DNA of 64,000 bases from assembly GCF_947568905.1 (NCBI RefSeq), contig NC_079170.1:38254001-38318000 (forward strand), written 5' to 3'. The stretch comes from Ostrea edulis. Lineage: Eukaryota. Shown here piece by piece: positions 25,126-44,153 of this stretch; position 1 is the first letter of the stretch; every line of letters starts with the position of its first letter. The notes beneath the pieces were generated by a model that worked only from the letters and a program-made list of their open reading frames with translations, searched no databases and was not told the origin of the DNA. A program made the position numbers and the translations under genes.

Positions 25126-25432
25126 AGTAGTATAACGCCTCCCGATAGGGGGTTCAACTGAGTGCACTTTTTATGCAAATGAGGTCAAGCAAGGGCGTCT
25201 TTTGATTGGTCAAGCGGTGTCGGGGTCAACGGAGTGCACTAGGACGGGGTCAACCCCAGCAGGGGTTGTAGGAGCCGGTGAATAGGTTGGCCTATGGCCG
25301 CTGGTCTATGATGCGGTACTTTCGCTTTGAGTTCCTGCTATTTTTCTGAAAATAAAATCCAGTGAAATCCTGTGTATTAAATCTAAAAGAATAACACAAG
25401 GTTTTAAGTTGACATGTTTATTAAAGAACAAT
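25126..25432 (+). repeat. Left terminal inverted repeat (307 bp)
   Basis: Compared base by base with the reverse complement of 45058-45364; no mismatch seen. Confidence 0.97.
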
Positions 25433-25481
25433 TTAATTAATTTAGAGTGTTATTGACGTTGTGAAAAAACCTGCTTTTCTA

Positions 25482-25504
25482 TGACGTCACAATAAGTATA
25501 TAAA
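25482..25504 (+). promoter_or_regulatory. PolB promoter: CRE/ATF palindrome plus TATA box
   Basis: TGACGTCA at 25482-25489 and TATATAAA at 25497-25504; ATG at 25540. Confidence 0.6.
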
Positions 25505-25539
25505 CGCAATACACAATTCGCGTTATCACTTTCGACATC

Positions 25540-28500: not shown

Positions 28501-29499
28501 CGCAGTCTCACTGGCACCTGGGTGACCACCGAACTTCACAAAGCATTAGATCTAGGCTATCGTCTCGACCGCATTTACGAAGTTTGGCATTTTGAGAAAA
28601 CCAGTGACCACTTATTTCGAGCGTATATCAACACCTTTTTGAAAATTAAACAAGAAGCTTCCGGATTCCCCGAGGATTGTCAAACAGCCCAACAGCAGCA
28701 ACATTACATTGAGGAAATTCAGCAACGAGAAGGCATTGCCATGAACCCGGCAGACATCCAGAAAAATCCTGTCCGAAGAACCATTGCCAAACTCTTTTTA
28801 AATTGCTTGTGGGGAAAATTTGCTCAACGATTACAATTACCCAAATCCCTGTATCTCACGGAAGAAGAAGAATTACAACAGAAATTACAAGATGCCACTT
28901 TAGAAGTCAAAGGCATCGAACTCTTAGAAAATCGTGAACGCCCCGAATGTGGTATGATGCTGATCAATTATCAGGAGAAAGAAGAATTTTTAGAAGACTG
29001 TCCCTTTGGAAACGTGGTGCTGGCGTGTTTTACAACAGCTCATGCTCGTTTACATTTGTACGAGACGTTACAGCCTTTGGGAGAGCGTGTCTTATACTTT
29101 GACACGGATAGTATCATCTATCAGCACGACGAGACCCAGTTCAATCCGACCATTATCAACAGTTTAGGTGGCTGGACCGATGAATTGGGTGGAGATCGTA
29201 TCATCAAGTACATGTCGGGCGGGCCCAAAAATTATGCATACGAGACCCAGGGGGAAAAATCTGTCTGCAAAGTCAAAGGATTGACACTCAATTATCGTGC
29301 CTCTAGAGTCGTGTCTCTCGATACGTTGGAAAAAATGTTAAAAGGAGAAGAAGAAGAAGTCCATGTCCGTTATCCGCACTTTATTCAACGAACCCGCCAA
29401 CATGATGTGCGAACCATTCCTCTGGTGAAGAAATACCGCATGGTGTATGATAAACGTCAACGTATTCATGACTATGACACGCTGCCTTACGGGTATTAA
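25540..29499 (+). pseudogene. pPolB: Protein-primed family B DNA polymerase interrupted by one in-frame TGA at 28036-28038
   Basis: ORFs 25540-28038 and 28072-29499 are in the same frame. Motifs: OTU-like DSLCL...HYD; Exo I YYDFEC; Exo II HNFKGYD; Exo III YCISDV; Vsr-like GCYWHGC; YGGRT; DVCSLYP; KLFLNCLWGK; YFDTDS; PKNY. Confidence 0.96.
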
Positions 29500-29534
29500 A
29501 AAGGATATGCTAGAGAAAACCATCAGTCGGCAAA

Positions 29535-30065
29535 ATGACGGACTACGAATCACTACATAACCCGGGTACACCACGTTATGCTCTACTGTCAGATCGAGTA
29601 GCGTCGTTTGAAAATGCTCCCGAACACTTGCAGAAGCTATTACCTACCATTGCAGAAGCGGGATACTTTTACAAAGGGTACGGGGATAACACGTGCTGTT
29701 TTTATTGCAACTTTGGACTTCACCATTGGGGAGCTGTCGACAATCCTTGGATACAACATGCTTATTGGTATCCTCACTGTCCTTACCTGAAGTGTAATAA
29801 GGGTAAACAATGGGTACGTCAAATGTTCGACGCCGTTAGCCGAATGCGAGACACGGGGAAGAATTGGGGAGACTTGTCTGTAGACAGTGTGGAGAATCCG
29901 GCTACGACGACGGAGAAATGTCATCTGTGTTTAGAACGAGACTTGAGAATAGCTTTTTTACCTTGTGGTCATTTATGTACTTGTGCTATATGTGCTACGG
30001 GACTGAAATAATGTCCTATTTGTAGACATAGTGTTGAGCAAGCTGTACGTATTTTTATTTGTTAA
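29535..30065 (+). pseudogene. iap: IAP-like BIR plus RING protein; RING truncated by in-frame TAA at 30009-30011
   Basis: Exact BIR zinc motif CX2CX16HX6C; RING CHLC...PCGHLCTCAIC, and after the stop the frame continues CPICRHSVEQAVRIFIC to TAA at 30063-30065. Confidence 0.92.
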
Positions 30066-30105
30066 TAAATATGTATGATCCCATGAACTTGTGTCATTTA
30101 TCAAG

Positions 30106-30744
30106 ATGTATACCTACGAGACACTTGAGCCTTTTCAGTTGAAACATGAATTTACCATGACGGTGGCTGGACCCTCTAAATCGGGTAAAACAGAATTTGT
30201 GAAGCAACTGGTACAAAATACGCAGTGGATTGCACCGCCTCCCGAAAAGATAGTATGGTGTTATCGAGAATGGCAGTCCGCGTACGAATCCTTACAGGAC
30301 AAGGTCACTTTTATCCGCAATATACCTCAAGACGATGAGCAGATAGTGGCGGATCTCAGTACGTGTCATCTACTCATTTTTGATGATATGATGGGAGGTA
30401 AAGCCATCGAATCGATTGTCGACTGGTTTACGCGCAAAGCGCATCATCGAAATACCAGTGTCATTTATATCACACAAAATCTGTTTGATCGAGCAGTACA
30501 ACATCGTACCATCAGTCTGAATGCTCACTATCTTGTGCTGTTTAAAAATCCTCGAGATAAATCACAGATTGGGGTGTTAAGTCGGCAATTACAAATGCCG
30601 CATTTACTTCCAGCCTATGAGGACGCCACCCGTGTACCTCACGGGTATTTACTAGTGGACTTGAGTCCTCAGACGTCGGACGATTTAAGATTAAGAAGTC
30701 AACTCTTTACCAACTTGGCTGTGCACATGCCCCCGAGAGTATAA
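30106..30744 (+). CDS. ATP: Genome packaging ATPase (A32/FtsK-like)
   Basis: Walker A GPSKSGKT, Walker B LLIFDDM, then HHRNTSVIYITQN; first in-frame ATG at 30106 (track starts at GTG 30091). Confidence 0.95.
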   Translation: MYTYETLEPFQLKHEFTMTVAGPSKSGKTEFVKQLVQNTQWIAPPPEKIVWCYREWQSAYESLQDKVTFIRNIPQDDEQIVADLSTCHLLIFDDMMGGKAIESIVDWFTRKAHHRNTSVIYITQNLFDRAVQHRTISLNAHYLVLFKNPRDKSQIGVLSRQLQMPHLLPAYEDATRVPHGYLLVDLSPQTSDDLRLRSQLFTNLAVHMPPRV

Positions 30745-30793
30745 ATAATGTCACATCATGGGCAGGTGTATCATTCGAAAGACAGTCTTCACC

Positions 30794-31666
30794 ATGGGTA
30801 GACCTTCCGCGAAGAGTAAATTAGTCAAAACGTTACGCCGTTTACAACGGGAACGGGATCCCGTTCAACGGAGCCATCTCATTGAATTAGGACGTAGAGC
30901 CTTACTCAACTGGTTTGCGATGGGAGCTCGAAATTTATTGCGAGGCGTCTTACCAGGCAATAAAATCACTCAGCGGTTCATTCAATCCCATCGCCAAGAC
31001 TTGAGTGTCATTGCCGATAAGAAGTCCAATGAAGAAGAGCGTAAAAAAGCCATTTTGAAACGAGGAGGCGCTGGATTCTTAGGAGGGACCATTATCCGTC
31101 ATTTATTCAAATGGGAAACAGGTCGTAAGCCCCGTGGGGGACAACCCAAGAAAACCAAGAAACCACGGGCTAAGAAAGCTAAAAAATCACCTCAGAGAAT
31201 TCCTAAACTCATTATTCGCTTACCTAAGAAGACACCTAAGAAGTCCCCTAAGAAGTCCCCTAAGAAGACACCTCTCAGGATGAAGAATCCGTTTCCCAAT
31301 TGGGCTCCAAAGAAAACCCCTCTCATTGTGAAGATGCCGTTTCCCAAAGCCACTCCCCCCAAGGTCACTAAAACGTTAGCCAATCTGAAAGCCGGATTAG
31401 CTCAAAAGAAAATGGAACGACCCATGCATGGGCCTATAGGAAGTTCCAGAACCAGTGATACTGCTCTACCGAGTTTTGCTCATACCTTTGGAAGCATGAA
31501 ATTTCAACCCTTAACCACCTCAACACCGGTTCAGGTGCAAAAGAAATATAAATGTAAATTTTGCCCTCTGGTCTTCAATGCGAGAGAGAACCGCAATCGT
31601 CACGAAGAGACCGTCCATCACAAGCGTTTTGATCCTAAACATCCGAGTGCCATTGTCCTGGACTAG
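30794..31666 (+). CDS. Basic core-like protein with SPKK/TPKK repeats and a C-terminal C2H2 finger
   Basis: TATAAATA at 30740-30747 favours ATG 30794 (accATGg) over 30758; KKTPKKSPKKSPKKTP; YKCKFC...F......RHEETVH. Confidence 0.8.
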   Translation: MGRPSAKSKLVKTLRRLQRERDPVQRSHLIELGRRALLNWFAMGARNLLRGVLPGNKITQRFIQSHRQDLSVIADKKSNEEERKKAILKRGGAGFLGGTIIRHLFKWETGRKPRGGQPKKTKKPRAKKAKKSPQRIPKLIIRLPKKTPKKSPKKSPKKTPLRMKNPFPNWAPKKTPLIVKMPFPKATPPKVTKTLANLKAGLAQKKMERPMHGPIGSSRTSDTALPSFAHTFGSMKFQPLTTSTPVQVQKKYKCKFCPLVFNARENRNRHEETVHHKRFDPKHPSAIVLD

Positions 31667-31706
31667 GTATAAAAAGGAGGGGGAAGGGGCCCCACCCTTC
31701 ATTACC

Positions 31707-32036
31707 ATGGCTCATACGAAGAAGTGTGAATGTCGATTACGACCTCATTTACCGCTCTTGCAGACGTTAGCGGCTCCTCACTATTCCAGCAAATTAAAGA
31801 CAGAGGTGTTGAAACATTGTTCCAATGACTGCATTTTAAAGATTTGTGAGATTGTGTACAATCTATTAAAAGGGGTGATTCCTCTCAATCCTACTCAGAA
31901 GCGACAACTGGGTCGAAAGAAACACATCTTAAGACGCTTAGTCCGCCCTCAACCTGTGAAAAAACGACGAGGTATACTCATTCACCAAAAAGGATTGGGT
32001 TCGTTTGTGTGTGGCAAGATTTGTAAGAAATCATGA
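31707..32036 (+). CDS. Conserved Polinton small basic protein (109 aa)
   Basis: TATAAAAA at 31668-31675, ATG 31707; ICEIVYNLLKGVIPL...ILRRL...ILIHQKGLG pattern seen in Polinton core-like proteins (recognised by eye). Confidence 0.8.
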   Translation: MAHTKKCECRLRPHLPLLQTLAAPHYSSKLKTEVLKHCSNDCILKICEIVYNLLKGVIPLNPTQKRQLGRKKHILRRLVRPQPVKKRRGILIHQKGLGSFVCGKICKKS

Positions 32037-32803
32037 GTCGAAAAATGGTGTTGGTACCGGAAGCGATGCTCAACGAATTAAAAGGCAAATTACCTAAACC
32101 TCCCGAATTTACCTCGACTATTGGTTTACGCAGTGATTTGGACGAGATTGAACATCGAGATGATTTAACCGAGAAAGAAAAAGTGGGGTTGTACGGTCAT
32201 CAACTTCATCGCTATCGTCAATATTTACAACAAGCTCGACATCCCACCACAGCGACTCGACCCTCCCCAACCAGTGCAACCAGTGGCGCCTCACCACCCT
32301 CAGCCGCCTCAACACCCGATGACTTGGAGGAACAGATTATCAAAAGCGTCAATAAACCGGGTCAAAAGAAAGCAGGTTTATTACTCGATCATCTCAAGAA
32401 ATCCAAAGTGGTGACTTGGAATAAAGAAAGAGAAATCAGCTATAGAGGACGCAGGGTTCCCGATTCCAATATCGTGGATTTAATCACCGAGTCCCAGAGA
32501 CAAAAACCTTTGAAACATCGTGAACCCCCTGCAGGGTTACAGCAATTTGCTCAAGCGTTAAAAGAAACGAATGCCCCTAAAGGATATTTGACCAATCGGG
32601 ATGTTATAAAAGCCATGGACAAGCCCGGAAAAATCAGTACTCCTAAACCTATAGAAGAAGAAGATGAGAGCGGATTTCAAGAAATCTCTGGTTTTGACCA
32701 ATCTTTCTATGAAACTCCCAGACGAATGATGACCCCTAAAAATATCAGGGAGGCTGGTAAAAAGACATCACGTGAAATTGGAAAATGGTTAAATCTACCA
32801 TGA
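32033..32803 (+). CDS. Conserved uncharacterised Polinton protein upstream of integrase (256 aa)
   Basis: W.....I...G..VPDSNIVDL...G...F..AL...N.P motif pattern typical of the Polinton gene preceding INT. Confidence 0.8.
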   Translation: MSRKMVLVPEAMLNELKGKLPKPPEFTSTIGLRSDLDEIEHRDDLTEKEKVGLYGHQLHRYRQYLQQARHPTTATRPSPTSATSGASPPSAASTPDDLEEQIIKSVNKPGQKKAGLLLDHLKKSKVVTWNKEREISYRGRRVPDSNIVDLITESQRQKPLKHREPPAGLQQFAQALKETNAPKGYLTNRDVIKAMDKPGKISTPKPIEEEDESGFQEISGFDQSFYETPRRMMTPKNIREAGKKTSREIGKWLNLP

Positions 32804-33870
32804 AACCAGAACAGATCTTACAGCGACTGTATTACGATCCCAAGACAGGTTATGGGGGAGTCCAGGCGTTGTATCGTCAAGTGCGTCAATTAGGACACAA
32901 GATTACCCTGTCTCAAATTCGAGAATGGGTGAAAGCTCAAGATACCTATACCTTGCATAAACCGATACGGAGGAAATTCAAGCGACGACAAACACGCGTG
33001 ACGGATATGGATGAACAATGGCAATTAGATTTAGCCGATGTCTCCAGCTTGAAACAAGACAATAATGGGTATACGTTTTTATTATGTGCCATTGACGTGC
33101 TGTCTAAATATGCCTGGGTCGTGCCTTTAAAACAGAAAACGGGGAAAGAAATGATACGAGGCTTACGACGGATTTTTCGAGAGGGACGTCGCCCCGTGCG
33201 CATTCAGTCCGATCAAGGAAAAGAATTTACCAATAAAGAATTTCGTCAAGCCTTCAAATCCATTCATTTCTTTACGACCCGTAATGCCGAAACCAAAGCC
33301 AGTATTGTGGAACGTTTTCAACGCACGCTGAAAGCACGCATGTGGCGGTATTTTACACGTCATAAAACACGACGGTATGTCGATGTCTTGGCCGATCTGA
33401 TGTATGGTTACAATCATACCTATCATCGCAGTATCCGGCGAGCTCCTGCTCAAGTCAATGCCAAGAATGTCTTGACCGTATGGAAAACCTTGTATGGAAA
33501 ACAGAGTGCCGATACCACGAGTCGCTTGCAAGTGGGGGATCGTGTAAGCATTAGTAAAGCTAAACGTACGTTTGAAAAAGGATATTTACCGAATTGGACC
33601 AAAGAACTGTTTACCATCTCTAGAAAAGTGCCAGGACGAAACGTCTATCGCATTCAAGATGATCACGGGGAAGAATTAGAAGGAACCTTTTACGAGAAGG
33701 AATTACAACAAGTGATTAAAGACGACGATGTCTATGAAGTGGAGGAAATCTTAGGGTATAAAAAGCGGCGTGTGGGAAAAAAAGTCATTTCAGAAGTCAA
33801 AGTGCGTTGGAAAGGATATCCTCCCAGTTTTGATTCATGGATTCCGCAAGCGGATCTCATTCGACCATGA
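32800..33870 (+). CDS. INT: Retroviral-like DDE integrase with C-terminal chromodomain
   Basis: WQLDLAD, IQSDQGKEF, ASIVERFQRTLK (D,D,E); chromodomain YEVEEIL...VRWKGYPPSFDSWIP. Start at ATG 32800 (ATGA overlap) or 32785. Confidence 0.96.
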   Translation: MKPEQILQRLYYDPKTGYGGVQALYRQVRQLGHKITLSQIREWVKAQDTYTLHKPIRRKFKRRQTRVTDMDEQWQLDLADVSSLKQDNNGYTFLLCAIDVLSKYAWVVPLKQKTGKEMIRGLRRIFREGRRPVRIQSDQGKEFTNKEFRQAFKSIHFFTTRNAETKASIVERFQRTLKARMWRYFTRHKTRRYVDVLADLMYGYNHTYHRSIRRAPAQVNAKNVLTVWKTLYGKQSADTTSRLQVGDRVSISKAKRTFEKGYLPNWTKELFTISRKVPGRNVYRIQDDHGEELEGTFYEKELQQVIKDDDVYEVEEILGYKKRRVGKKVISEVKVRWKGYPPSFDSWIPQADLIRP

Positions 33871-34124
33871 CCACCCAGTGGACTTTCTTGGGTGAAAAAG
33901 TCCCCCGAGCAGAAATTGTGTATTTTGCACAATTATTCCTGTGTTTAACCATCATTATCACCTCGGTCGTGATGTTAGCCTTAGGCGATCCCAATCGCGA
34001 TTTTTGGATGGTGACCTTAAGTTCTCTCGTAGGCTACGTCATGCCTAGTCCACAAATGACGTTAGCGAGCCCGAGTATAAAACAGGAGTCCCCTTCACCT
34101 GAGAGATCAGTTCACCATGGCTAA
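33867..34124 (+). CDS. Small predicted two-TM membrane protein (85 aa)
   Basis: ATG overlaps the integrase TGA; hydrophobic IVYFAQLFLCLTIIITSVVMLAL and FWMVTLSSLVGYVMP. Confidence 0.7.
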   Translation: MTTQWTFLGEKVPRAEIVYFAQLFLCLTIIITSVVMLALGDPNRDFWMVTLSSLVGYVMPSPQMTLASPSIKQESPSPERSVHHG

Positions 34125-34572
34125 GCCACAGTACGCCTGGAAACAAGAGGGGGAGAAAAGTACCTGGTTCTGGGATAAGCAGATGTGTTTGATGCATTGT
34201 AAACAACACAAAGTGTTAGATCAACCGGTGTACTTGTACAAACGGATACTGATACCTCACGGATGGTCAGCCTTTATCATGAAGACTAAATATCAAGAGT
34301 TTCGCTGGAAAGTCAAAGCCTTCTGGGGATTGATGGGACGACAAGACGAATCCGATTGGACCTTAAATGATAGTCCTTGGTTTGACAATTCCGAGGACTG
34401 TCTCCGACATTTCAAAGACATGATCAATGAAGGTTATGATGTAGCCGATTGCTGGGGAACCCGACACTATCTGGTGATGCGACGACGCTTAGTCCCGAGA
34501 CGAACACTAGAGTTGGAAGACTCCTTTCTACAATCGTTGACTTGCGGTGGTGGTCGCGATCAAGAAGAATGA
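34117..34572 (+). CDS. Hypothetical protein (151 aa, Trp-rich)
   Basis: ORF with TATAAAA at 34076-34082, accATGg start and AATAAA at 34610-34615; no family recognised. Confidence 0.7.
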   Translation: MAKPQYAWKQEGEKSTWFWDKQMCLMHCKQHKVLDQPVYLYKRILIPHGWSAFIMKTKYQEFRWKVKAFWGLMGRQDESDWTLNDSPWFDNSEDCLRHFKDMINEGYDVADCWGTRHYLVMRRRLVPRRTLELEDSFLQSLTCGGGRDQEE

Positions 34573-34687
34573 CATGTAAAATTGTGTATTAACATTATGT
34601 TGTATGTTCAATAAAATATGAAAATGTTCATTGTGTTATGAGTATAAATAGAGAAGGAAACAGAGACAGGGTCTCATTTAAGACATC

Positions 34688-35683
34688 ATGGCTGGAGGAG
34701 AAGGGTTTTACATGACTCTGTTGAGTGATGGGTCGATGGAATCGTTTCCGACGAATACGACGGCTCAATTTAAAACGTTATTGCCACACACCATGGACTT
34801 AACGGATGGAGAATGGGAAGTCGGATTGACCGAAATGATGTACTCGGCCAACTTACAAAACGTATCGGATAGCGAGGCTTATGTGGACGTTCTCATTCCA
34901 GATCCGTATACGCAATATGTCCAAGATCCCAACACTTATAAATGGGAAAGATTTAAGACACAGAATATGGGTAAAGTCACGATAGCCGGGTGTGAGGTGG
35001 TGGTCCCCTGGGATCTCACGCCATGGTCCCATCTCTTTGCGGGAGGGGATAGTTTATTTCCCTTCGATATCATTCGCATTCACTTCCGACCCGGAGCTTA
35101 TACACAACCTTTGGCGTTAATCAATGAAATCAACGCAGCCTTAAGGAGAACCCTGTGGAAAGTATGGAGGGAGTTAGGGAATCCTAACGACGAGGGGAAC
35201 AACCAGCTCTTAGTGTATCACCCCGAGTACGATCGTGTCGAGTATCAGTTTAATGGGAAAGCACTGAGATCCACCCCCATGTGCATTCGTTTCCCTACGC
35301 CCTTAGCGTACAAGCTAGGTCTGGATAGTGACAAAATGATCCTGGGCGATGAAACCATGACGAAATGGATCAACGTGAATTACTTGGGGAACACGGCCAT
35401 GGATGTCTACGACAATCTGAAAGCCATGTATGTGTATTGTGACATTGTGGATCCTCAAGTGGTGGGCACCAACAAATTGAAATTATTGAGAGTCGTCCCC
35501 TGTACGGGTCAATACGACGATCGACAACAAGCCCGTTGGGAACCGATTCGAGCCGAATATTTGAAACTGAGTAAGAAATATTTCGATACCATTGAGGTAC
35601 ACATCATGAATTCTTTAGGGCGTCCTATGGGCTTTTTAAATGGGCGCTCCTTAGTCAAACTTCATTTCCGCAAAGTGTATTGA
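34688..35683 (+). CDS. PX: Minor capsid protein (penton-like, single jelly roll)
   Basis: N-terminal FYMTLLSD...FKTLLP..MDL..EWEVGLTE and C-terminal YVYCDIV...VG......LLRVVP...DTIEVHI....G...F..G....LHF motifs; TATAAATA at 34643. Confidence 0.9.
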   Translation: MAGGEGFYMTLLSDGSMESFPTNTTAQFKTLLPHTMDLTDGEWEVGLTEMMYSANLQNVSDSEAYVDVLIPDPYTQYVQDPNTYKWERFKTQNMGKVTIAGCEVVVPWDLTPWSHLFAGGDSLFPFDIIRIHFRPGAYTQPLALINEINAALRRTLWKVWRELGNPNDEGNNQLLVYHPEYDRVEYQFNGKALRSTPMCIRFPTPLAYKLGLDSDKMILGDETMTKWINVNYLGNTAMDVYDNLKAMYVYCDIVDPQVVGTNKLKLLRVVPCTGQYDDRQQARWEPIRAEYLKLSKKYFDTIEVHIMNSLGRPMGFLNGRSLVKLHFRKVY

Positions 35684-35686
35684 AAG

Positions 35687-35830
35687 ATGAAGTACCATCG
35701 AGGAGTCAGACGCCAGAAAGGACACGGAATCTGGTTTCTCATTCCATGGATTGCCAATGCCATTGTGGGTCAAGCGGGCCAAGGAAAGAAGAGAAAGAGA
35801 CGGCGTAAAAAGTATAAAAAGCGGGTGTAA
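35687..35830 (+). CDS. 47-aa basic core/pX-like peptide (not in the ORF track)
   Basis: MKYHRGVRRQKGHGIWFLIPWIANAIVGQAGQGKKRKRRRKKYKKRV; starts 4 nt after the penton stop; N-terminus matches the next ORF. Confidence 0.75.
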   Translation: MKYHRGVRRQKGHGIWFLIPWIANAIVGQAGQGKKRKRRRKKYKKRV

Positions 35831-35857
35831 CCCCTAACGAAGTTCATTTACATCAAG

Positions 35858-36553
35858 ATGCACTACCATAAAGGTTTAATACGGCAGCAGGGTCACGGGC
35901 TTGGAGCCCTGTTGGGAATAGCCAGCAAAGTGGCGGGTCCCCTGATCAGCGGATTATTAGGTGGAGCCCCCGCACAACAACAACAACAGCGTCCTGTCTA
36001 TCAAGAGAGATATTATGATTACGACCGCCCTTATCGCCCTTATCGCTCTTATCAGAGGAGACGACGTAGAAGCCATCCAACAGAAGAATATGATCCAGAA
36101 TCTGAAAAGCAGAAGGGAAAAGGATTTTTCACCGATTTACTCAAATCGGGGGCTAAAAGTGCCTTAAAGGCTGCTGCTAAAACAGGGATGGATGTGTTAG
36201 ATAATAAACGATCCCTCAAAGACGCTCTCAAGACACACGGTGTCCAAGCCCTGAAAGAGACAGCAGGGTATGCCCGTAGGCGAAGATCTCGAAAAGCCCC
36301 ATCCAAACGAGGAAGAAAATCGCGCACAGGAATACTCAGGAAGCCTGGAACCACGACCGTCAAAAGAAAACAGGTGGGAAAACAGGTGGGAATACAGGAA
36401 GGAAAAGGATTTGTTAAAAGAAAACAACGTATCTTAGCTCGGGGAGGGCCTCATAAGAGACCTAGGAAGCAACCTAGGAAGCGATCTAGGAAGGGAGGTA
36501 GGAAGCTCGTGAAAAGGGGTAAGCCAAAACGCTCTCTGGATATTTTCGACTGA
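35858..36553 (+). CDS. Basic core / membrane-penetration-like precursor with repeated QxGxG motifs (231 aa)
   Basis: RQQGHG-LGALLG, KQKGKG-FFTDLL and IQEGKG-FVK; amphipathic segments after the motifs; Arg/Lys-rich tail; TATAAAAA at 35813. Confidence 0.8.
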   Translation: MHYHKGLIRQQGHGLGALLGIASKVAGPLISGLLGGAPAQQQQQRPVYQERYYDYDRPYRPYRSYQRRRRRSHPTEEYDPESEKQKGKGFFTDLLKSGAKSALKAAAKTGMDVLDNKRSLKDALKTHGVQALKETAGYARRRRSRKAPSKRGRKSRTGILRKPGTTTVKRKQVGKQVGIQEGKGFVKRKQRILARGGPHKRPRKQPRKRSRKGGRKLVKRGKPKRSLDIFD

Positions 36554-36632
36554 GAACCCTATAAAAAGGGGGTGAGAAGGACACCAGAACACATTTGATC
36601 CCAGTTCACGCTGAGTAACACATCGTTCCAAT

Positions 36633-38036
36633 ATGATGCACAGAGAATCTTGCGCTTGTGGCACCGACAGTTTAGAACTGTTTAAAGTGCCCCCGACCAA
36701 CGTCACTTTAGAAGATTCGAAATGGATGGAATATTACCCCATTTCCAGTACCCTCAACTCGGATACGGCTCCGATTGAATTTGAAATCAAAGGACAAGGA
36801 GATGAATATCTGGATTTATCCCAAACTTATCTCCAGATGGTCTGTAAATTCACCAAAGCAGACGGGACGAATCTCGCAGGAGGCAATTCGACCTCGACCC
36901 CCGTGAATAACATTCTCCATTCCTTGTTCAGTGAAATCGATGTCAGTCTCAATGGAAAAGTCATTACCCCGGGGACGGATACTTATCCCTACAAAGCGTA
37001 TCTGGAGAAATTGTTGTCTTATGCACCCAAGACTCTGGAAACCCAGATGAGAGCCTGTAGCTTGTGGGAAAAAGATACGGCAGGACATATGGATGAGGTC
37101 AAATTAGAAGCTCTGACTCAACCTCCTGTGGAATTTGCAGTAGCGCTTGATAAAGTCAACATCGCGGCCGTCATCCCGACTCCCGTGTATCCGGATGATT
37201 CCAAGAATGTAGGGTTGAGAAAACGTCACGAGAAGATTACAGACAGTAAGGAGATCGTGTTGATGGATCGATTACATCTGGATTTGTTTGAGCAAGAGAA
37301 ATGTCTCCCTAATGGCTTGGATGTCCGTCTCAGATTCAATCGCGCTCGACCCCAGTTCTACATGATGACCGCTGCCGGGAGTAGTGGGAAAGTGGTCATT
37401 CAAAGTATGATCTTGTGGGTGAGGAAAGTCAAACCTGTGCCGAGTATCATTAATCTCATCAATCAGCAACTGAGTACTCAAACGGCGAAATATCCATTGA
37501 GACGAGTGGAAGTGAAAACCTTCACCATTCCTAGTGGCACCCAGTCTAAAATCACCGATCATCTGTTTCAAGGACAGATGCCTAAACTGATCGTGTTGGG
37601 TTTTGTGGACAATGCGGCTTTTAATGGGGATAATACCAGAAACCCCTTTCATTTCCAAAATGAGAGAGTCAAGAAATTAGAAATCAGTATCAATGGAGAA
37701 ATGATGGAAACCCGCCCTTTGGAACCTAATTTCACCGACGATCAGTACCTGAGATCGTATTTGAGTCTGTACAAAGGCTTGGGAAAATTAGGCCAGGACT
37801 GGGCTCCGGACATTACCCTGGAAGAGTATAAAAACGGTTACACCCTCTGGTGTGTGGATTTCACGAAAGATCAAGAAGCCCAGACGGATAAATTTCATCT
37901 CATACAGACGGGGAACTTGAGAGTGGAAGTGCAATTTGCCGCCAACGTGGCCAGGACCTTAAACTGTGTGGTGTATGCCGTGTTCGACAATCTGCTAGAA
38001 ATCAACAAACAACGAGAAGTCAGTATCGATTACTAA
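36633..38036 (+). CDS. PY: Major capsid protein (double jelly roll)
   Basis: PIEFEI...[48 protein letters not shown] and GNLRVEVQF motifs; TATAAAAA at 36560. Confidence 0.95.
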
Positions 38037-38043
38037 GAGAGAG

Positions 38044-38541
38044 ATGGATACTCAGCAATTGAGAGATGTTTTACAACGAGATTTAGGACCGGCGTTTGCC
38101 GGTGTGTATCCTCGAGATGTCATACCTGAGCTGTTACCTCATCACAAAGCCATCGTGGTGAATACAGACCCTCACGATCGCCCTGGAGCGCATTGGGTCT
38201 GTTTGTATTTGAGTAGCCCTACCGTCGAATATTTTGATTCTTACGGATTACCTCCCAGCCATAAAGACATCCAAGACTTTATTCAACGCCACGGAGAGAC
38301 TTGGATTCATAACACCCATTGTTATCAAGATTTGAATACGGATGTCTGTGGACAATACTGTGTGTATTTTTTACATCAACGCCATCGCCATAGAAGCACC
38401 GTACGAGAATGGTTACTTCCCTGGAAAGGCACGGCCTTACAACGCGATCGTTTTGTGGCGGATTGGTTTAAAGAGACCTTCCGAAAACCGAGAACCCATC
38501 AAGGACAAACTTGTCAATGTCAAAGACTGAATGTATTGTAA
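38044..38541 (+). CDS. PRO: Adenain-like cysteine maturation protease
   Basis: NTD...PGAHW, YFDSYG, YQ.....CGQYC catalytic His/Asp/Gln/Cys pattern. Confidence 0.95.
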   Translation: MDTQQLRDVLQRDLGPAFAGVYPRDVIPELLPHHKAIVVNTDPHDRPGAHWVCLYLSSPTVEYFDSYGLPPSHKDIQDFIQRHGETWIHNTHCYQDLNTDVCGQYCVYFLHQRHRHRSTVREWLLPWKGTALQRDRFVADWFKETFRKPRTHQGQTCQCQRLNVL

Positions 38542-38632
38542 ACTATGTTATTGTTATTGTTCATAGTTGGAGTTTAATAAAACGTTGGGAAAAAAAAATA
38601 TTTTTTTTTTCTTGTCATTGTAATCAACCATG

Positions 38633-38673
38633 TCTTTTCAAAAAGAATGGGTAGCCCTGAAAAGGGCTGTTTT
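38633..38673 (-). terminator. Histone-type 3' stem-loop plus purine-rich downstream element
   Basis: Minus strand: AAAAC AGCCCT TTTC AGGGCT ACCCA TTCTTTTT GAAAAGA, 84 nt after the stop of ORF 38753-39052. Confidence 0.75.
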
Positions 38674-38752
38674 CTTTCTCTCTCTGTTCTTGGTCTTTTC
38701 TCTTCTTCTCTCTTCTTCTCTCTCTTCTCTTCTTCTCTTCTCTGTCCCCCTC

Positions 38753-39052
38753 TCACTGTCTGTTCTTCTTCTTCTTCTTTCTTCTCTTCTTTTTCTGCTC
38801 CTCCGGGGGTTGCTCGTGGTCAAACACAAACACAGGCAACCACCCGTGTTTAAAAAACAATCTCCCCGGAGGCCGCTGCACCACTTCTAACTCTGCGTCC
38901 CAGTTTTCCTCAGGCGGGGGCAGATCCTGGCTCATGGGCGGTGGGGGAAGAGCCTCCCGTGAGGCCGGCGGGGCAATCTCTTCGTCCCAATCCTCCTCAC
39001 ATTTGTAACAATAATCATTCACCGTAGGGTCTGATCCTACTCTGCGACTCAT
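38753..39052 (-). CDS. Hypothetical 99-aa acidic/Pro-rich protein with a basic C-terminal NLS-like tail
   Basis: ATG-started ORF with upstream shared promoter motif and downstream stem-loop; EEDWDEE and EENWDAE repeats; KKKRRKKKKK. Confidence 0.65.
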   Translation of the reverse strand: MSRRVGSDPTVNDYCYKCEEDWDEEIAPPASREALPPPPMSQDLPPPEENWDAELEVVQRPPGRLFFKHGWLPVFVFDHEQPPEEQKKKRRKKKKKNRQ

Positions 39053-39104
39053 CGTTCTGGTTCCTTTAAAAAATCGGAATGCCCGATTTTTGACGTTGCG
39101 CTCG

Positions 39105-39144
39105 TTTAAAAAGGCGAGAGCGCGGACGTCCTCGAAAACATCCC
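39105..39144 (-). promoter_or_regulatory. Shared promoter motif, copy 1, plus TATA-like TTTAAA
   Basis: AGCGCGGACGTCCTCGAAAACATCCC at 39119-39144; near-identical copy at 41151-41176. Confidence 0.65.
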
Positions 39145-39159
39145 CCTACCTCAGATGGC

Positions 39160-39197
39160 TGACGTCATGTTGATGACTCATCAAAAAACACTATATA
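39160..39197 (+). promoter_or_regulatory. CRE plus AP-1 plus TATA promoter of the Cys-rich gene
   Basis: TGACGTCA 39160-39167, TGACTCA 39174-39180, TATATA 39192-39197; ATG 39230. Confidence 0.55.
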
Positions 39198-39229
39198 CAT
39201 AGGTCACTTGTTACCATTTTTTCTCAATC

Positions 39230-39631
39230 ATGTCGTTTGAACGGTACGTGGATGGTGAGAAAGATGTACTAATGTGTGGGTATTGCCGAGGACCTTGGAG
39301 AACTTGTGGGTGTTTTCATTATAAAAAAGAAAACATCCTGGCCAAACATAAGTGGATAGAGTATATGGCAGAGCTGAATTATTGTCCCTTTGTCTATAAA
39401 TGTTGTGGTCACACTAGAGAACCCTGGCTACCGTGTAAGTGTCCGCAGCATTGTACCATCAACCCTGAAGATGAAATAGCTCATAAGGACTGTACCTGTG
39501 AGATCTGTCAGGAGTTTAGAGAGCGCTGGACTCAGAGAAAGTTTAAACCCCACCTGTTTCAACATTGTCCTTACAGTCAAGAACCCCGGTCAACGTGTAC
39601 CTGTGAGACCTGTCAACCAGCATGTCGGTGA
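39230..39631 (+). CDS. Cys/His-rich putative metal-binding protein (133 aa)
   Basis: Many CxxC/CxC motifs; internal repeat CTCEICQ / CTCETCQ. Confidence 0.7.
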   Translation: MSFERYVDGEKDVLMCGYCRGPWRTCGCFHYKKENILAKHKWIEYMAELNYCPFVYKCCGHTREPWLPCKCPQHCTINPEDEIAHKDCTCEICQEFRERWTQRKFKPHLFQHCPYSQEPRSTCTCETCQPACR

Positions 39632-40119
39632 CGGATCTACGAGGAGATGTATTATCTCTACCTTGGGTGGATGGTATTGTACAACAATGTAACTGTTTAA
39701 CGGTGAAACCTCATGGATTAAGTCAACGTATTGCCGACCGATTTCCTTGGGCTAATCTGTATGCGACCCGACAACCTTTAGGACGAAGAAATTTAGCTAT
39801 AGAAGCGGATCGAGGAATACCGGGTACTGTGTGTATTATGCCTCATTCTTCTCATCCTGATGTAATCTGTTTGTTAGCGCAATGGGATTACGGGAGAGGC
39901 ACTCAACGCTTACCCCTGTATGCCGATACCCCCGAACAACGTGAACTTTGGTTTCAACAATGTTTACAGGAATTAGGCACTTTGTCTTACCAGACTTTAG
40001 CGTTTCCTTATCGTATTGGATGTGGATTAGGCGGAGGCAATTGGACTCATTATAGACAATGGATTTGTGACTTTGCTTATCAGTATCATAAACATGTTTA
40101 CATTGTCAAGAAAATGTAA
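39622..40119 (+). CDS. Macrodomain protein (TARG1/DarG/SCO6735-like class), putative ADP-ribosyl hydrolase
   Basis: GDVL...IVQQCNC...GL...I...FP; VICLLAQ..YG; FPYRIGCGLGGGNW diphosphate-binding loop. Confidence 0.85.
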   Translation: MSVTDLRGDVLSLPWVDGIVQQCNCLTVKPHGLSQRIADRFPWANLYATRQPLGRRNLAIEADRGIPGTVCIMPHSSHPDVICLLAQWDYGRGTQRLPLYADTPEQRELWFQQCLQELGTLSYQTLAFPYRIGCGLGGGNWTHYRQWICDFAYQYHKHVYIVKKM

Positions 40120-40211
40120 CTTTATTATAGCTTTATTCTAGCTATTACTTGTGTTAATAAAACTTTTTAAAAACAAACTTGTGTGTTTCTTGATTTTTGC
40201 CATAAAAAGTG

Positions 40212-40250
40212 TCTTTTCAAAAAAGTTGGTGGCCCTGAAAAGGGCCGTTT
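40212..40250 (-). terminator. Canonical histone mRNA 3' stem-loop plus purine-rich downstream element
   Basis: Minus strand: AAAC GGCCCT TTTC AGGGCC ACCAA CTTTTTT GAAAAGA, 23 nt after the RING-gene stop. Confidence 0.85.
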
Positions 40251-40269
40251 GGTCCTAAGGACCGACTTT

Positions 40270-41058
40270 TCAATCCCTGGTTCCGGTAAACCGGCATAAC
40301 GGGCACCGTCCCCGGGTGTGTCGCCGCTCCTGTAACTCTTCCACGCACGAGCAGCAAGCTGGGCGCTGCCCACATCCCCTACACGTAATTCCAGAGTGTA
40401 CCCTGTCTTGCCAGCAGACAGGACACTTAAACCAGATAGGAACCGCCCTATCTGCCCAGCCAGGGACAGTCATAGGGTGGTTCCTCGGGGGATGAGTTGC
40501 CACCGGTGCGTGGGTTGGTCTCGGTGGCGGAGTCCTCCCTGCAAACCGGATGGTAGGTGGTGGGGGTCTTGCAGGGGCTGCTGGTCTCGGTGGTGATGCC
40601 GTGTCTGCCACCAACAGCGACGGACTCTGGGCTGGACTGGGAGGTGGTGCGGGGGACGGTGACCTCGGTGAATACTCCACCGGTGACGCTGGTGAGTCGC
40701 TCATCGGCACCGGGCTGTATTCCTCAGGTGCCGATGGGATCGGTGGTGGTGGTGTTGTAGGCGTCGCCGGGGAGTAAGGTGGTGGTGGTGAGGGTGGCTG
40801 TGGGGCCCGTCGGCGCGGTCTCGTGGCCGTGGAGATTCGAGCGGTGCGGCGGCGGGGTGCCCTCCCTTCATACTCGGCCCGCACCCGGCAGATGATCTCA
40901 CGGACCCCACTCTGGTCGAAAGGGGAGAAGGTGCTCAGGTCGTTCTCAGAACGCACGACCCAATTCTCCCCTACCCGTTCCTCAGCCACCACTACCAGCC
41001 GGTACCGGAATCCAGGCAAGGTCTGGAAATTGTAGAGCGGGTCTCTTCTTGTAGCCAT
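40270..41058 (-). CDS. Pro-rich protein with a C-terminal RING finger (C4C4-like), 262 aa
   Basis: ATG at 41058 (track start 41109 is GTG); CPVC-x10-C-x2-C-x5-CCSC-x13-CPLCR; PPPPY and YSP repeats. Confidence 0.8.
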   Translation of the reverse strand: MATRRDPLYNFQTLPGFRYRLVVVAEERVGENWVVRSENDLSTFSPFDQSGVREIICRVRAEYEGRAPRRRTARISTATRPRRRAPQPPSPPPPYSPATPTTPPPPIPSAPEEYSPVPMSDSPASPVEYSPRSPSPAPPPSPAQSPSLLVADTASPPRPAAPARPPPPTIRFAGRTPPPRPTHAPVATHPPRNHPMTVPGWADRAVPIWFKCPVCWQDRVHSGITCRGCGQRPACCSCVEELQERRHTRGRCPLCRFTGTRD

Positions 41059-41137
41059 TCTTCTTTCTTCTTTCTTCTTTAAAATCCTTCTACAACTGTG
41101 CTGGATCACCAGTGAAGCGAACTGGCGAGTGCGCCGG

Positions 41138-41176
41138 TATATATCAGGAAAGCGCGGACCTCCTCGAAAACATCCC
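41138..41176 (-). promoter_or_regulatory. Shared promoter motif, copy 2, plus TATATA
   Basis: AGCGCGGACCTCCTCGAAAACATCCC at 41151-41176 (25/26 identical to 39119-39144); TATATA at 41138-41143. Confidence 0.65.
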
Positions 41177-41611
41177 TCGCTTCGGAGACGAAGCCAAGAT
41201 GGTGGCCGTCAAAATGGCGGATTTGTGCTTTCGAGTAGAGAGTTTTTTCTCATTGTCTTTTTCTAGACATTCGATATCTGTGCAAGGTAGATTTAATCTG
41301 ATAGATTCTGAGACGGCGAATGCGTTAAACTTATTTTTATTTTGCTACGTCGCATAGTTTTCAAAGAAACAGCGGTTAAAGAGGTCGAGTCGAGGTTCAA
41401 TGTTTCTTCACCACCTCTTTAAAAATTTATTTCTCGACCATGTACATCCCTAAAAACATCTCATAAGGTCTATTCGATAGAAAACACCTTATTTGATTCG
41501 ATTTTCACTCTACCTTTAGGATTTTCTGGATTCCTCAACAAATAAACCCTTCTCTGAGAGACTCAACCAAACACAGCTTTCGTGTAAACAATTTTATTCA
41601 TGTCACATATT

Positions 41612-41830
41612 TCAAATACATAACTCCCACACACAACACCAATGCACATGTCTTTTTAAAATAGGGTCCAACATTTTTTCCATTTCTCGAATCCTGCGTT
41701 GAAATCGATATCGATCAGCGGCTACAGTCATCCAGATACTTGTCCGGTCTTCTTCGGGTAACCGATACACTTCATTATGATCCAGATTAAAAGTCACACG
41801 TTTAACTTGACGTACATCTCTCGAAGACAT
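41612..41830 (-). CDS. DP71L/ICP34.5/GADD34-like PP1 regulatory subunit (72 aa)
   Basis: ATG 41830: MSSRDVRQVKRVTFNLDHNEVYRLPEEDRTSIWMTVAADRYRFQRRIREMEKMLDPIL; RVxF motif plus the W...A.DR.RF.RRI...E..L signature. Confidence 0.85.
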   Translation of the reverse strand: MSSRDVRQVKRVTFNLDHNEVYRLPEEDRTSIWMTVAADRYRFQRRIREMEKMLDPILKRHVHWCCVWELCI

Positions 41831-42099
41831 CGTAGTCTGATTTTCTCGATTTCTGCTCTGTCTGTGGGTCGAATTCGTTTCAATTCCTGGCCCATTAAAT
41901 GAATCAATACTAAGGCTTGCGGGGTGATCCGGTTCTCGATCAAATACTGACAGAGACATGGATAGTCCTTTAAGCTGATGGGAAATAATTCTTCTCGCAT
42001 ATAGTGTAACACAAATTCAATCTGCCAAGAATGAATGTCTGTGAGATAATCCAATACATAAGTTATCGCTTTCTCTGTGATGTGGTCACTGCTGGCCAT
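41794..42099 (-). CDS. Unknown helical protein, tandem paralogue 4 (101 aa)
   Basis: ATG 42099; shares FPxxLxxY and LxxIxxxGxExKxxxP....I..I...L motifs with its neighbours. Confidence 0.75.
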   Translation of the reverse strand: MASSDHITEKAITYVLDYLTDIHSWQIEFVLHYMREELFPISLKDYPCLCQYLIENRITPQALVLIHLMGQELKRIRPTDRAEIEKIRLRCLREMYVKLNV

Positions 42100-42433
42100 C
42101 CTCCGGGAATAAATGAAATGAATTAAGTTCTTCACACTTTATGTATACTTCTCGAAGCCAGTCCTTGGTGATACTTTCAATCTCAACGGTTTTTTCAGGC
42201 ATGCGTTTCTTGAATTCCTCCCCCAGGACATAAATTAACATCAATCCCGCATCGTTATAGAGATTGATGTATATCCGGTTCCGTAGATCTGTATATTCGT
42301 CCAGAGTCATTGGAAACACCCCCGCTATCAGAAAATTTTTAACGAATTGAAACACCGTATCGTCTTGCATTTTCTCGACCCATTCTAATGCATGGTTATG
42401 CGCTTTTTCTGCGATGTTGTCACTGCTGGCCAT
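42086..42433 (-). CDS. Unknown helical protein, tandem paralogue 3 (115 aa)
   Basis: Start region GGAGGATGGCCAGCAGTGAC identical to that of the 42099 ORF; shared protein motifs. Confidence 0.8.
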   Translation of the reverse strand: MASSDNIAEKAHNHALEWVEKMQDDTVFQFVKNFLIAGVFPMTLDEYTDLRNRIYINLYNDAGLMLIYVLGEEFKKRMPEKTVEIESITKDWLREVYIKCEELNSFHLFPEDGQQ

Positions 42434-42462
42434 CCTCCACGAATAAAGGAAAAGAAAAACGG

Positions 42463-42816
42463 TTAGGTTTTTTTATACACCTTTTCCAACCAGTGATCGG
42501 TAATCGCTACAATCGCCCCAGTCTTCTCAGGTTCCCGTCGTCTAAATTCTTGCTCCATGGTATAATTCATGATCAATCCAGACTCTCTGTTCAGGTTGCC
42601 GGCTATATGCTTGCAAACGCCGGAATATTCATATAAGGTCATAGGAAATTCCCAAAAGATCAACAACTTCATAGCGAATTTATATCTCAACGGCTGTTTT
42701 TCTTTCCAGTCCTTGATACACTGTAATGCAGCGCTACGAGCGTTGTTCACCGATTCTTTGTAGTCCTTGAAATGCTGTAATACAGCGGTAAGAACGTTGT
42801 TGGTCAATTCAGCCAT
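42463..42816 (-). CDS. Unknown helical protein, tandem paralogue 2 (117 aa)
   Basis: FPMTLYEY, EQEFRRREPEKT and HWLEKVY align with paralogue 3. Confidence 0.75.
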   Translation of the reverse strand: MAELTNNVLTAVLQHFKDYKESVNNARSAALQCIKDWKEKQPLRYKFAMKLLIFWEFPMTLYEYSGVCKHIAGNLNRESGLIMNYTMEQEFRRREPEKTGAIVAITDHWLEKVYKKT

Positions 42817-42853
42817 GATGATCAAAATGAAAAAATTCCAAAACGTTCTTGTT

Positions 42854-43186
42854 TTATAACAGGGCAGCCATTCCTTTCATACGAATCAGTTCCACGAATC
42901 CTTTTTGTAAACAATCGCGTAAGATCCGATCAATGTCACTCATCTGGTCTGGAAGATTCTGTTTCAATTCCTCAGCATACAAATAAATCATGAGTAAACG
43001 TCCCGTATTGGTATTCTCCGCTAATGAATCAGCAATCCGTTGAAAACTATGTACATTTCTGACCTCCGGTGACATCTGTTGTACAAATTGACGAGCATTT
43101 TGAATGTGAGGATTATGTAAGGCCATGTTCATACATTGTAGTACATAACTATATCCATTTATTCTCGTAGTAGCACTGCCGCCCAT
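42854..43186 (-). CDS. Unknown helical protein, tandem paralogue 1 (110 aa)
   Basis: LLMIYLYAEELKQNLP...IDRILRDCL aligns with the family; TATAAATA on the minus strand at 43217-43224 favours ATG 43186 over 43213. Confidence 0.7.
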   Translation of the reverse strand: MGGSATTRINGYSYVLQCMNMALHNPHIQNARQFVQQMSPEVRNVHSFQRIADSLAENTNTGRLLMIYLYAEELKQNLPDQMSDIDRILRDCLQKGFVELIRMKGMAALL

Positions 43187-43216
43187 AGTAAATAACGAAC
43201 GTTCAGAAAACATCTG

Positions 43217-43290
43217 TATTTATAGGTAAAGGTTATGCATCACGTGATCAAACACCTGCACCACGTGATCAAACACCTGTACGTCAGCTG
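43217..43290. promoter_or_regulatory. Divergent promoter with duplicated E-box module
   Basis: CACGTGATCAAACACCTG at 43241-43258 and 43262-43279, ACGTCA and CAGCTG at 43281-43290, between divergent ATGs at 43186 and 43326. Confidence 0.6.
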
Positions 43291-43325
43291 GTTTTTCTAC
43301 AGTCATTCTTGTCTGACCTTCAGTC

Positions 43326-43832
43326 ATGGATACACGGAGAATTTTAAGAGCGAGACGCTGCCGCCAGGGAATACAATCAGTGGAGAATTTAACCATAGTG
43401 GAAGATTATGTAGACGAGATGGAGATCTGGGACAATTTAGTACAGAGATGTCGCCATCGATTACGCTGGGGGCGATCTAAAAATTGGTGTTTTGACTATG
43501 TATTGCGGTCACATGAAACAGTGGAGGATATTTGCCTACGATTAAGTGACATGTACCTGAAAAATTCCCCCCTCATACAGTACATGATTTACCAGTTTTA
43601 CACGTTATTGAACGGCACTCAAAAAGTATCGGGATTTATTCGACTGGAGAAACCACGTTACCGAAGAAGTGTATGGGTATTGTTTTGGGATGCACACTGG
43701 ATGTGGGAAACCGTCGAAGAGATACGTTTCCCCGGGAGAAGAGCTCGACAATTAGTACAACACATTATATCCGAAGATCATGACTTACACGTGTATATAG
43801 AAGAACCTGCGTATGAAGCCGGCCATTTTTAA
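43326..43832 (+). CDS. Protein with a degenerate CRESS-virus Rep (HUH) endonuclease-like domain (168 aa)
   Basis: SKNWCF ... IQYMIYQ ... NGTQKVSGFIRLEKPR ... V..LF.DAHW follows the circo/nanovirus Rep N-domain pattern; HUH and YxxK catalytic residues are absent. Confidence 0.62.
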   Translation: MDTRRILRARRCRQGIQSVENLTIVEDYVDEMEIWDNLVQRCRHRLRWGRSKNWCFDYVLRSHETVEDICLRLSDMYLKNSPLIQYMIYQFYTLLNGTQKVSGFIRLEKPRYRRSVWVLFWDAHWMWETVEEIRFPGRRARQLVQHIISEDHDLHVYIEEPAYEAGHF

Positions 43833-43847
43833 AAATAAAAACTTCAT

Positions 43848-43871
43848 GCACAGCCCTTTTTAGGGCTACTT
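43848..43871 (+). terminator. Possible histone-type stem-loop
   Basis: AGCCCT TTTT AGGGCT AC at 43852-43869, 19 nt after the Rep-like stop; AATAAA at 43835 precedes it; no clear downstream element. Confidence 0.5.
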
Positions 43872-43920
43872 TAAACATCAATATAAGTTCCATTCCACTA
43901 AAGTCAATGTGTACCAATGT

Positions 43921-43992
43921 GCACTAGCACGCGCTGGTCGCGAGAAACCGGCTTTTCAAGTTCAATTAGGGCACTAGCACGCGCTGGTCGCG
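43921..43992. repeat. 22-bp direct repeat, 50-bp period, upstream of the zinc-knuckle gene
   Basis: GCACTAGCACGCGCTGGTCGCG at 43921-43942 and 43971-43992. Confidence 0.9.
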
Positions 43993-44153
43993 CGATGTTC
44001 TAGCTGAAACCGGTTTTTCCAGAAAAAGATGATGCAACCACGTGCTCCCCACGTGCCCCCCCACGAGACAGAATAGTCTAGACATTTTGCTGGCTATAAA
44101 AGCGGAGCCCCAGTGTCAGTCCTCATTCGATCTTCAATCACCTTCCAGAAGAC

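Follow-up and report, generated by a model that had tools for sequence, protein, structure and literature searches.

Replication-dependent (RD) histone mRNAs have been called the only eukaryotic mRNAs without a poly(A) tail, and the protein SLBP is described as limited to S phase (PMC9169081; PMC5011920 agrees for a cnidarian; here and below, papers are cited from excerpts of their texts). SLBP binds the stem, and the U7 small nuclear ribonucleoprotein (snRNP) pairs with the histone downstream element (HDE), which lies about 15 nt beyond the cleavage site (PMC5435866). Textbook accounts reserve the histone stem-loop pathway for histone mRNAs. Here, we analyse a stretch of 64,000 nt from the genome of the oyster Ostrea edulis (RefSeq assembly GCF_947568905.1, contig NC_079170.1, positions 38,254,001 to 38,318,000 of the forward strand; hereafter the window) and describe a mobile element of the Polinton/Maverick type that appears to have taken over the 5' and 3' signals of a histone gene to express unrelated proteins, and to exchange the open reading frames (ORFs) between them. 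From comparative sequence data we consider it probable that two of its genes, one encoding a RING-like protein and the other a protein of 99 amino acids (aa), co-opt the SLBP/U7 pathway of histone genes, which would link their expression to S phase and leave their mRNAs without poly(A).

Two histone-like cassettes in the window

Both genes lie on the minus strand and are built from the same parts, listed here from 5' to 3' on that strand.

41151..41175, minus strand: H1-type promoter box GGATGTTTTCGAGGAGGTCCGCGCT before the RING gene, 24/25 to host H1, followed by TATA-like GATATATA
40270..41058, minus strand: 262-aa RING ORF, with a small N-terminal domain, a Pro-rich middle and a C-terminal eight-Cys RING-like finger, without histone similarity
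40231..40246, minus strand: stem-loop 1 (SL1), histone 3' stem-loop GGCCCTTTTCAGGGCC, 23 nt after the RING stop, stem identical to host H2B
40210..40218, minus strand: downstream element GAAAAGACA, 12 nt after SL1
39119..39143, minus strand: H1-type promoter box GGATGTTTTCGAGGACGTCCGCGCT before the 99-aa gene, 23/25 to host H1
38753..39052, minus strand: 99-aa ORF, acidic and Pro-rich, with a conserved core around QRPPGR and a basic C-terminal tail
38653..38668, minus strand: stem-loop 2 (SL2), histone 3' stem-loop AGCCCTTTTCAGGGCT, 84 nt after the 99-aa stop, first pair A-U as in host H1
38631..38639, minus strand: downstream element GAAAAGACA, 13 nt after SL2

An H1-type box, a TATA-like box behind it, an intronless ORF, a stem-loop and GAAAAGA 12-13 nt further on make up what is likely, judging by its parts, a reusable cassette that mimics a host RD histone gene. 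A preliminary description of this DNA had reported three hairpins; re-locating them in the sequence bore out their positions and stop distances (the third, SL3, is treated below), as well as the compensatory G-C/A-U difference between SL1 and SL2 (pair 1) and the downstream element that these two share, which contains GAAAAGA. Both SL1 and SL2 hence carry a purine-rich HDE at histone spacing, the same as that of host histone genes. The stem pattern has three matches in the window, versus a mean of 0.00 and a maximum of 0 in 100 shuffles, and the predicted pairing probability of all six stem pairs is 0.83-1.0 in sequence context. The Rfam model RF00032, to which the preliminary description had referred, scored SL1 at 40.2 bits (gathering cut-off 34) and left SL2 and SL3 below the cut-off.

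The 25-nt promoter box, missed in the earlier account, was first seen as a repeat common to the two genes that have a stem-loop and HDE. It occurs exactly twice in the window, both times before these genes (0 in 100 shuffles), is absent there before the core genes and before the gene ending in SL3, and has 314 matches genome-wide (0 for a reversed-pattern control). The GGTCCG core of the box resembles H4 site II, and we assume a likeness of the box to the HINFP motif. An "H4 box" has been described in H1.0 promoters (PMC6027317). The divergent H2A/H2B promoter of the host (intergenic, L062/L064-L070) contains ATGTTTACAAGGAGGTCCG, which is related to the H1 box and matches it at 19/25. Upstream of the RING box (41190-41225, minus strand) lie two CCATNTT motifs, which we take to be YY1-like, and these are kept in all three subfamilies of the element (A, B and C, see below).

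Host histone genes and genome-wide matches

GAAAAGA follows the stem at about 13 nt in 27 of 27 host histone stem-loops (H1, H2A, H2B, H3 and H4, from nine stretches of histone clusters; one of the 27 without a called ORF). The 23 nt after SL1 and those after the host H2A stem are one gap apart, SL2 and SL3 share the A-U first pair with host H1, and the entire SL3 stem is that of H1. The host genome also contains an SLBP gene. Genome-wide, the combined pattern of stem and GAAAAGA, which leaves out the GGCCGT-type stems of H2A, H3 and H4, matched 346 times (0 for the reversed control). The first 100 matches listed (C1-C3) were assigned by eye from the spacer: 78 to Polintons, 18 to a repeat with an SGNH ORF, two to PL genes and two to others. 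The top 30 RF00032 loci of the genome comprise the element (27) and H2B (three); being chosen by stem score, they were kept out of the conservation counts.

Histone-type 3' signals were also observed in other contexts. The SGNH repeat is a second dispersed family (L079:8990-9670, L081:9158-9770; C1), in which an SGNH/GDSL-hydrolase-like ORF (PF13472) ends in a histone stem-loop and GAAAAGATG; the H1 box was not found there. A Tc1-like DDE transposase ORF has a stem with GAAAAGA some 320 nt downstream (L083:9850-9883 / L084:204-1031), and for another such stem no ORF was found upstream (L073:4988-5030). A small unit (L074:4880-5640; C3 near 40.457 Mb) has inverted ends, each with an outward-pointing histone stem-loop, around a 132-aa ORF without Pfam match.

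Conservation across copies and subfamilies

We fetched 18 stretches beside capsid genes, representing three subfamilies (A, B and C); all but one position came from capsid lists, so that the sample is not stem-selected. Two of the stretches are interrupted after the protease; the other 16 extend into the accessory region. A stem and GAAAAGA come after the 99-aa homolog in 16/16 cases (15 canonical; L206 with one G-U pair), and RING homologs have both the box and the stem with GAAAAGA in 13/13, counts in which copies within one subfamily are not independent, the real number being a handful of lineages. Loss of the hairpins from sibling elements, named in the preliminary description as an outcome that would refute it, was not seen for SL1 and SL2, which are kept across subfamilies.

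The conservation at the 99-aa site is concentrated in the signals. When subfamily A is compared with B, C, a remnant (L085) and the distant relative L171 (described below), 12-15 of the 16 stem bases and 4-5 of the five 3'-flank bases are kept, versus 36-49% identity in the upstream untranslated region and 50-58% after the HDE (random identity baseline: mean 48%, maximum 60%). GAAAAGA stands at 12-13 nt in every subfamily and in L171, its 7/7 conservation being by construction, since it was found by exact search. The promoter box of the 99-aa gene keeps 20-24 of 25 bases, versus 43-53% in its flanks. The stems have undergone compensatory changes at pair 1 (G-C/A-U) and pair 3 (C-G/U-A). Even the ORF may be swapped, as two copies with a subfamily-A backbone (L007:705-1484, L011:698-1477) carry a RING protein only 41% identical inside the same box and stem. 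Through these changes of ORF and flanks, the cassette keeps its anatomy and its match to the host histone signals.

Gene-less derivatives of subfamily C were also found on C3 (L216, L217), with the H1 box in both and the stem with HDE in L216; at least four sites similar to them lie on C3 at 76.5-77.5 Mb.

The RING ORF is open across subfamilies at 41-91% identity, with eight Cys invariant at RING spacing, and its profile matches are weak (TRIM32 RING, E=0.01; PF13639 in 5 of 10 members, best E=0.004). Members of the 99-aa family keep the QRPPGR core and the basic tail. For neither protein did an Atlas search return an informative homolog; a representative search gave three repetitive proteins, which we regard as artefacts. 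We also rejected an LxCxE-like reading in the 99-aa protein, as it varies among copies.

The third hairpin

43326..43832, plus strand: 168-aa ORF, weakly Rep-like, without an upstream H1 box, with AATAAA just after the stop (43834)
43852..43867, plus strand: SL3, AGCCCTTTTTAGGGCT, 19 nt after the 168-aa stop, stem as in host H1, without GAAAAGA

The preliminary description had grouped SL3 with SL1 and SL2, a grouping that we do not uphold: the downstream element and the promoter box are both missing. The 3' flank is ACTTT and not ACC(C/A)A, and AATAAA lies 18 nt upstream of the hairpin. The label "Rep-like", given to the 168-aa ORF in the same account, has to be weakened, the match to PF02407 (E=0.015) being below the cut-off. 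Genome-wide, SL3 has 97 matches (0 for the control). It is present in subfamilies A and B and absent in C; among the 16 copies, 12 have it intact, one mismatched and one replaced by an insertion, and the remaining two are subfamily C. The 85 nt after SL3 (43868-43950) are 85-92% identical between A and B, though the upstream ORF is 46% identical. Since conservation thus reaches beyond the stem, that of SL3 is not stem-specific. The block may be the promoter of the next gene, and SL3 may bind SLBP without U7 cleavage or be vestigial.

Distant relatives in public contigs

A distant set of 82 capsid-bearing loci was drawn from public contigs (388 kb, mostly short). Two sister contigs, L171 and L146 (capsid 53% and 45%), have an H1-type box after the protease (21/25 and 19/25) and cassette ORFs of 124 and 119 aa that are unrelated to the window ORFs and point the opposite way from the capsid; in L171 there follow a stem with ACCCA and, at 13 nt, GAAAAGATA. 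The L171 gene was not found in the host genome with this query, a result that does not by itself show absence. A third contig, L190 (capsid 34%), contains a 78-aa ORF followed after 105 nt by a match to RF00032 (39.5 bits) and, downstream of that, by AAAAGAA; the H1 box is absent. A stem after the protease of L160 was not counted, its 3' flank being non-canonical and Rfam not passed.

In IMG/VR, which served as a control, 19 stem-pattern matches were located inside ORFs or were terminator-like, without Polinton similarity, and 0 of the 12 tested passed RF00032; single-sequence scans for capsid and protease found nothing there, and an alignment scan gave two loci without a canonical stem. In contig sets from four of the 16 runs listed, none of them on record as RNA, the RING body is nearly uncovered throughout, which we did not use, as divergence below the 85% cut-off explains it as well as a lack of poly(A).

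The element and its gene content

25126..45364, strand not assigned: Polinton/Maverick, with AGTAGT...ACTACT ends, target-site duplication and genes
25120-25125 and 45365-45370: target-site duplication GTCATC
25126..25432, plus strand: left terminal inverted repeat, 100% complementary to the right one
45058..45364, minus strand: right terminal inverted repeat
25540..38541, plus strand: core block, with protein-primed PolB (pPolB), IAP, A32 ATPase, integrase with chromodomain, probable minor capsid and core protein, major capsid and adenain-type protease
36633-38036, plus strand: major capsid, labelled from its position and F54H12.2-like homologs
39230..40119, plus strand: 133-aa Cys-rich ORF and 165-aa macrodomain-like ORF between the two cassettes, the macrodomain label being by inspection and without Pfam match; AATAAA at 40156
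41612..43213, minus strand: PP1-binding (GADD34/ICP34.5-like) ORF (PF10488, E=7e-6) and four small paralogous ORFs; AATAAA at 41593

The element has the end features by which Mavericks are defined (PMC8097293), namely (AGT)2 at the ends of its terminal inverted repeats and a target-site duplication of 6 bp. It is young and 20.2 kb long, with perfect inverted ends. Its gene content is likewise that of a Polinton: pPolB, a retroviral-like integrase, a packaging ATPase and a protease (Pfam PF03175, PF00665, PF04665), the match of the adenain-type protease (PF00770) lying just under the cut-off. The pPolB frame of the window copy is interrupted between 28038 and 28231. The major capsid has no Pfam match; its homologs, the closest of which in the database are labelled Ostrea edulis and other oysters, carry the name F54H12.2-like. 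The histone and PL-type genes of the host are in keeping with a bivalve. Capsid labels in the core block follow position and the identity of this family, which is presumably the double jelly-roll capsid of Polintons.

The preliminary description had stated that the core genes show AATAAA. This holds in part: the hexamer stands 35-53 nt after the protease, IAP, 151-aa and macrodomain-like genes, and none lies within 400 nt after the integrase, minor capsid, core and major capsid genes.

Several genes look like anti-defence functions, i.e. the GADD34/ICP34.5-like ORF and its paralogs (41612-43213), one of the four being weakly Bcl-2-like (PF00452, E=0.007), and an IAP with BIR and RING (29535-30011). 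Outside the element, the window holds two tRNA-like heads, probably of a short interspersed nuclear element (51465-51536, 62032-62102), a reverse transcriptase ORF of a long interspersed nuclear element (54633-56411) and a small inverted-repeat element (45624-46082).

Probable expression programme and alternative explanations

Given a host-matched box, stem and HDE around interchangeable ORFs, a histone programme is the simplest reading. The co-option of the histone 3'-end pathway, as proposed in the preliminary description, is supported for SL1 and SL2 by comparative sequence evidence (host HDE, compensatory conservation, H1 box) and by the host SLBP gene, and is weaker for SL3. In such a programme a host H1 activator would bind the box (in view of its H4 site II likeness and the assumed HINFP motif), SLBP would bind the stem, U7 snRNP would pair with GAAAAGA, and cleavage of the RNA would fall about 5 nt beyond the stem (near 40226 and 38648). 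The mRNAs of the RING and 99-aa genes would be tailless, with synthesis, translation and decay following the histone schedule, be it in S phase, in cleavage embryos or in SLBP-rich germ cells. More speculatively, the two small products, one an E3-ligase-like RING protein and the other a peptide with a basic tail, both probably nuclear, may be early regulators needed only during host DNA replication, and their tailless mRNAs may escape poly(A)-dependent control. With less assurance, we lean towards the broader view that animal Polintons evolved a histone-mimic expression class, possibly repeatedly and alongside other mobile elements, in which non-histone early genes use a host histone activator and SLBP/U7 maturation to give tailless mRNAs coupled to replication.

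A number of results weigh against the histone programme. Host U7 small nuclear RNA was not found in four attempts: an Rfam search of the host genome gave one sub-threshold match only, an antisense-plus-Sm-site pattern was at chance level (92 vs 144 for the control), none of 49 distinct folded candidates (30 loci and 20 stretches, one duplicate) had a strong 3' hairpin, and a pattern anchored on the proximal sequence element (20 vs 65 for the control) yielded no candidate. By a strict scan, a canonical stem-loop is present in one of the 82 distant capsid loci (on mostly short contigs), L171 and L146 having been added via the promoter; the top stem pair of L171 is mismatched, and the L146 contig ends inside the stem. 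SLBP prefers an A-rich 5' flank, and the five bases before the 99-aa stem are CCCCC in subfamilies B and C. Around the RING box the promoter is 73-98% conserved too, and the box does not stand out there. The contigs from four runs, mostly of 90-95% relatives, also cover intergenic DNA, and no place in them has many molecule ends. Both AlphaFold models are of low confidence (pLDDT 49 and 60), which makes protein function a guess.

In the window copy, moreover, polyadenylation is possible, as AATAAA stands at 94 and 105 nt past SL1 and ATTAAA at 75 nt past SL2. The mRNAs might thus be mostly polyadenylated downstream while SLBP binds the stem for storage or translational control in oocytes and early embryos, giving germ-line expression that is timed without being strictly coupled to S phase. 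Such hexamers also occur at three of nine host histone sites, SLBP-dependent polyadenylation of maternal histone mRNAs has been described (PMC11997800), and SL3 is an example of a stem without downstream element. Nevertheless, we regard this explanation as unlikely: AATAAA or ATTAAA is found within 200 nt downstream at three of six subfamily sites and is missing at both sites in subfamily B, and the constant spacing of GAAAAGA in every subfamily and L171 is the expected signature of U7 cleavage.

It is more doubtful still, and by our estimate quite improbable, that the signals are functionless, either as neutral leftovers of captured histone-gene flanks or as sequences refreshed by gene conversion from host histone genes. 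SL1 and its 3' flank hardly differ from host H2B/H2A sequence, host H1 has the same stem as SL3, and most copies are young, so that copy counts are not independent (of 91 capsid matches scored among 271 candidates in the host genome, 78 are at 96-100% identity and 13 at 88-89%). The host match is, however, limited to short signals: there is no visible similarity to host H1 beyond the 25-nt box, and tblastn with 13 host histone/PL proteins against seven element stretches (E<=0.01) found no histone coding remnant. Furthermore, the signals persist where the flanks are at random identity; they show compensatory changes, surround different ORFs and also occur in a lineage whose capsid is 45-53% identical.

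A decoy or DNA-level role, in which the cassette sequesters SLBP, U7 or the activator of H1, or anchors the element at histone locus bodies, with a reduced histone supply or reduced silencing as the effect, and in which the ORF products matter less, would draw on the many sites supplied (78 of the first 100 listed matches with Polinton-type spacers), on the gene-less derivatives L216 and L217, taken as keeping box and stem, and on human cytomegalovirus (HCMV), which blocks histone synthesis and commandeers SLBP (PMC9169081), but we hold it to be the least probable of the alternatives, as the signals sit exactly at the promoter and 3'-end positions of ORFs that are open and conserved across subfamilies.

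If the SLBP/U7 pathway is indeed co-opted, this would be the first known case of its use in cis by a virus-like element, which would break the histones-only rule, and would provide the first concrete mechanism by which Polintons time their expression to host DNA replication or the germ line. Cassette transcripts are then predicted to be under-represented in poly(A)-selected RNA-seq, so that such genes would be overlooked. The cassettes would also provide natural substrates other than histone genes with which to study how membership of the histone regulon is determined.

Comparison with known systems

The element resembles the described Polintons/Mavericks (adintoviruses) in its AGTAGT ends, 6-bp target duplication, pPolB, integrase, ATPase, protease, presumed capsid, and IAP and Bcl-2-like accessory genes (PMC8097293, PMC8502044). 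It differs from them in the cassettes: the term "stem-loop" is in neither main text of these two papers, and "histone" appears 0 times in one and once, unrelated, in the other. No description of a histone stem-loop in a Polinton or DNA virus was found in the full-text literature, of which subscription journals and Repbase Reports are scarcely covered parts, making a prior mention possible. HCMV is comparable as a DNA virus that engages the histone 3'-end machinery; unlike the cassette, it acts by relocalizing SLBP and blocking histone synthesis, and no viral stem-loop is described in the excerpt of PMC9169081.

The bivalve genes for H1-related sperm nuclear basic proteins (PL-type) do not belong to the five canonical histones, and those of the host (L087, L090) have a stem with GAAAAGA as well as the ACGTCCGCGCT half of the box; PL proteins are nonetheless linker-histone homologs (PF00538), unlike the Polinton ORF products. 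With metazoan RD histone genes the cassettes share the six-pair stem, the four-base U-rich loop, the ACC(C/A)A flank, the host HDE at 12-13 nt, the intronless ORF and the H1-type and TATA-like boxes, whereas their ORFs do not encode histones and are located inside a mobile virus-like element. The parts of the pathway are all known, and it is its client that is new.

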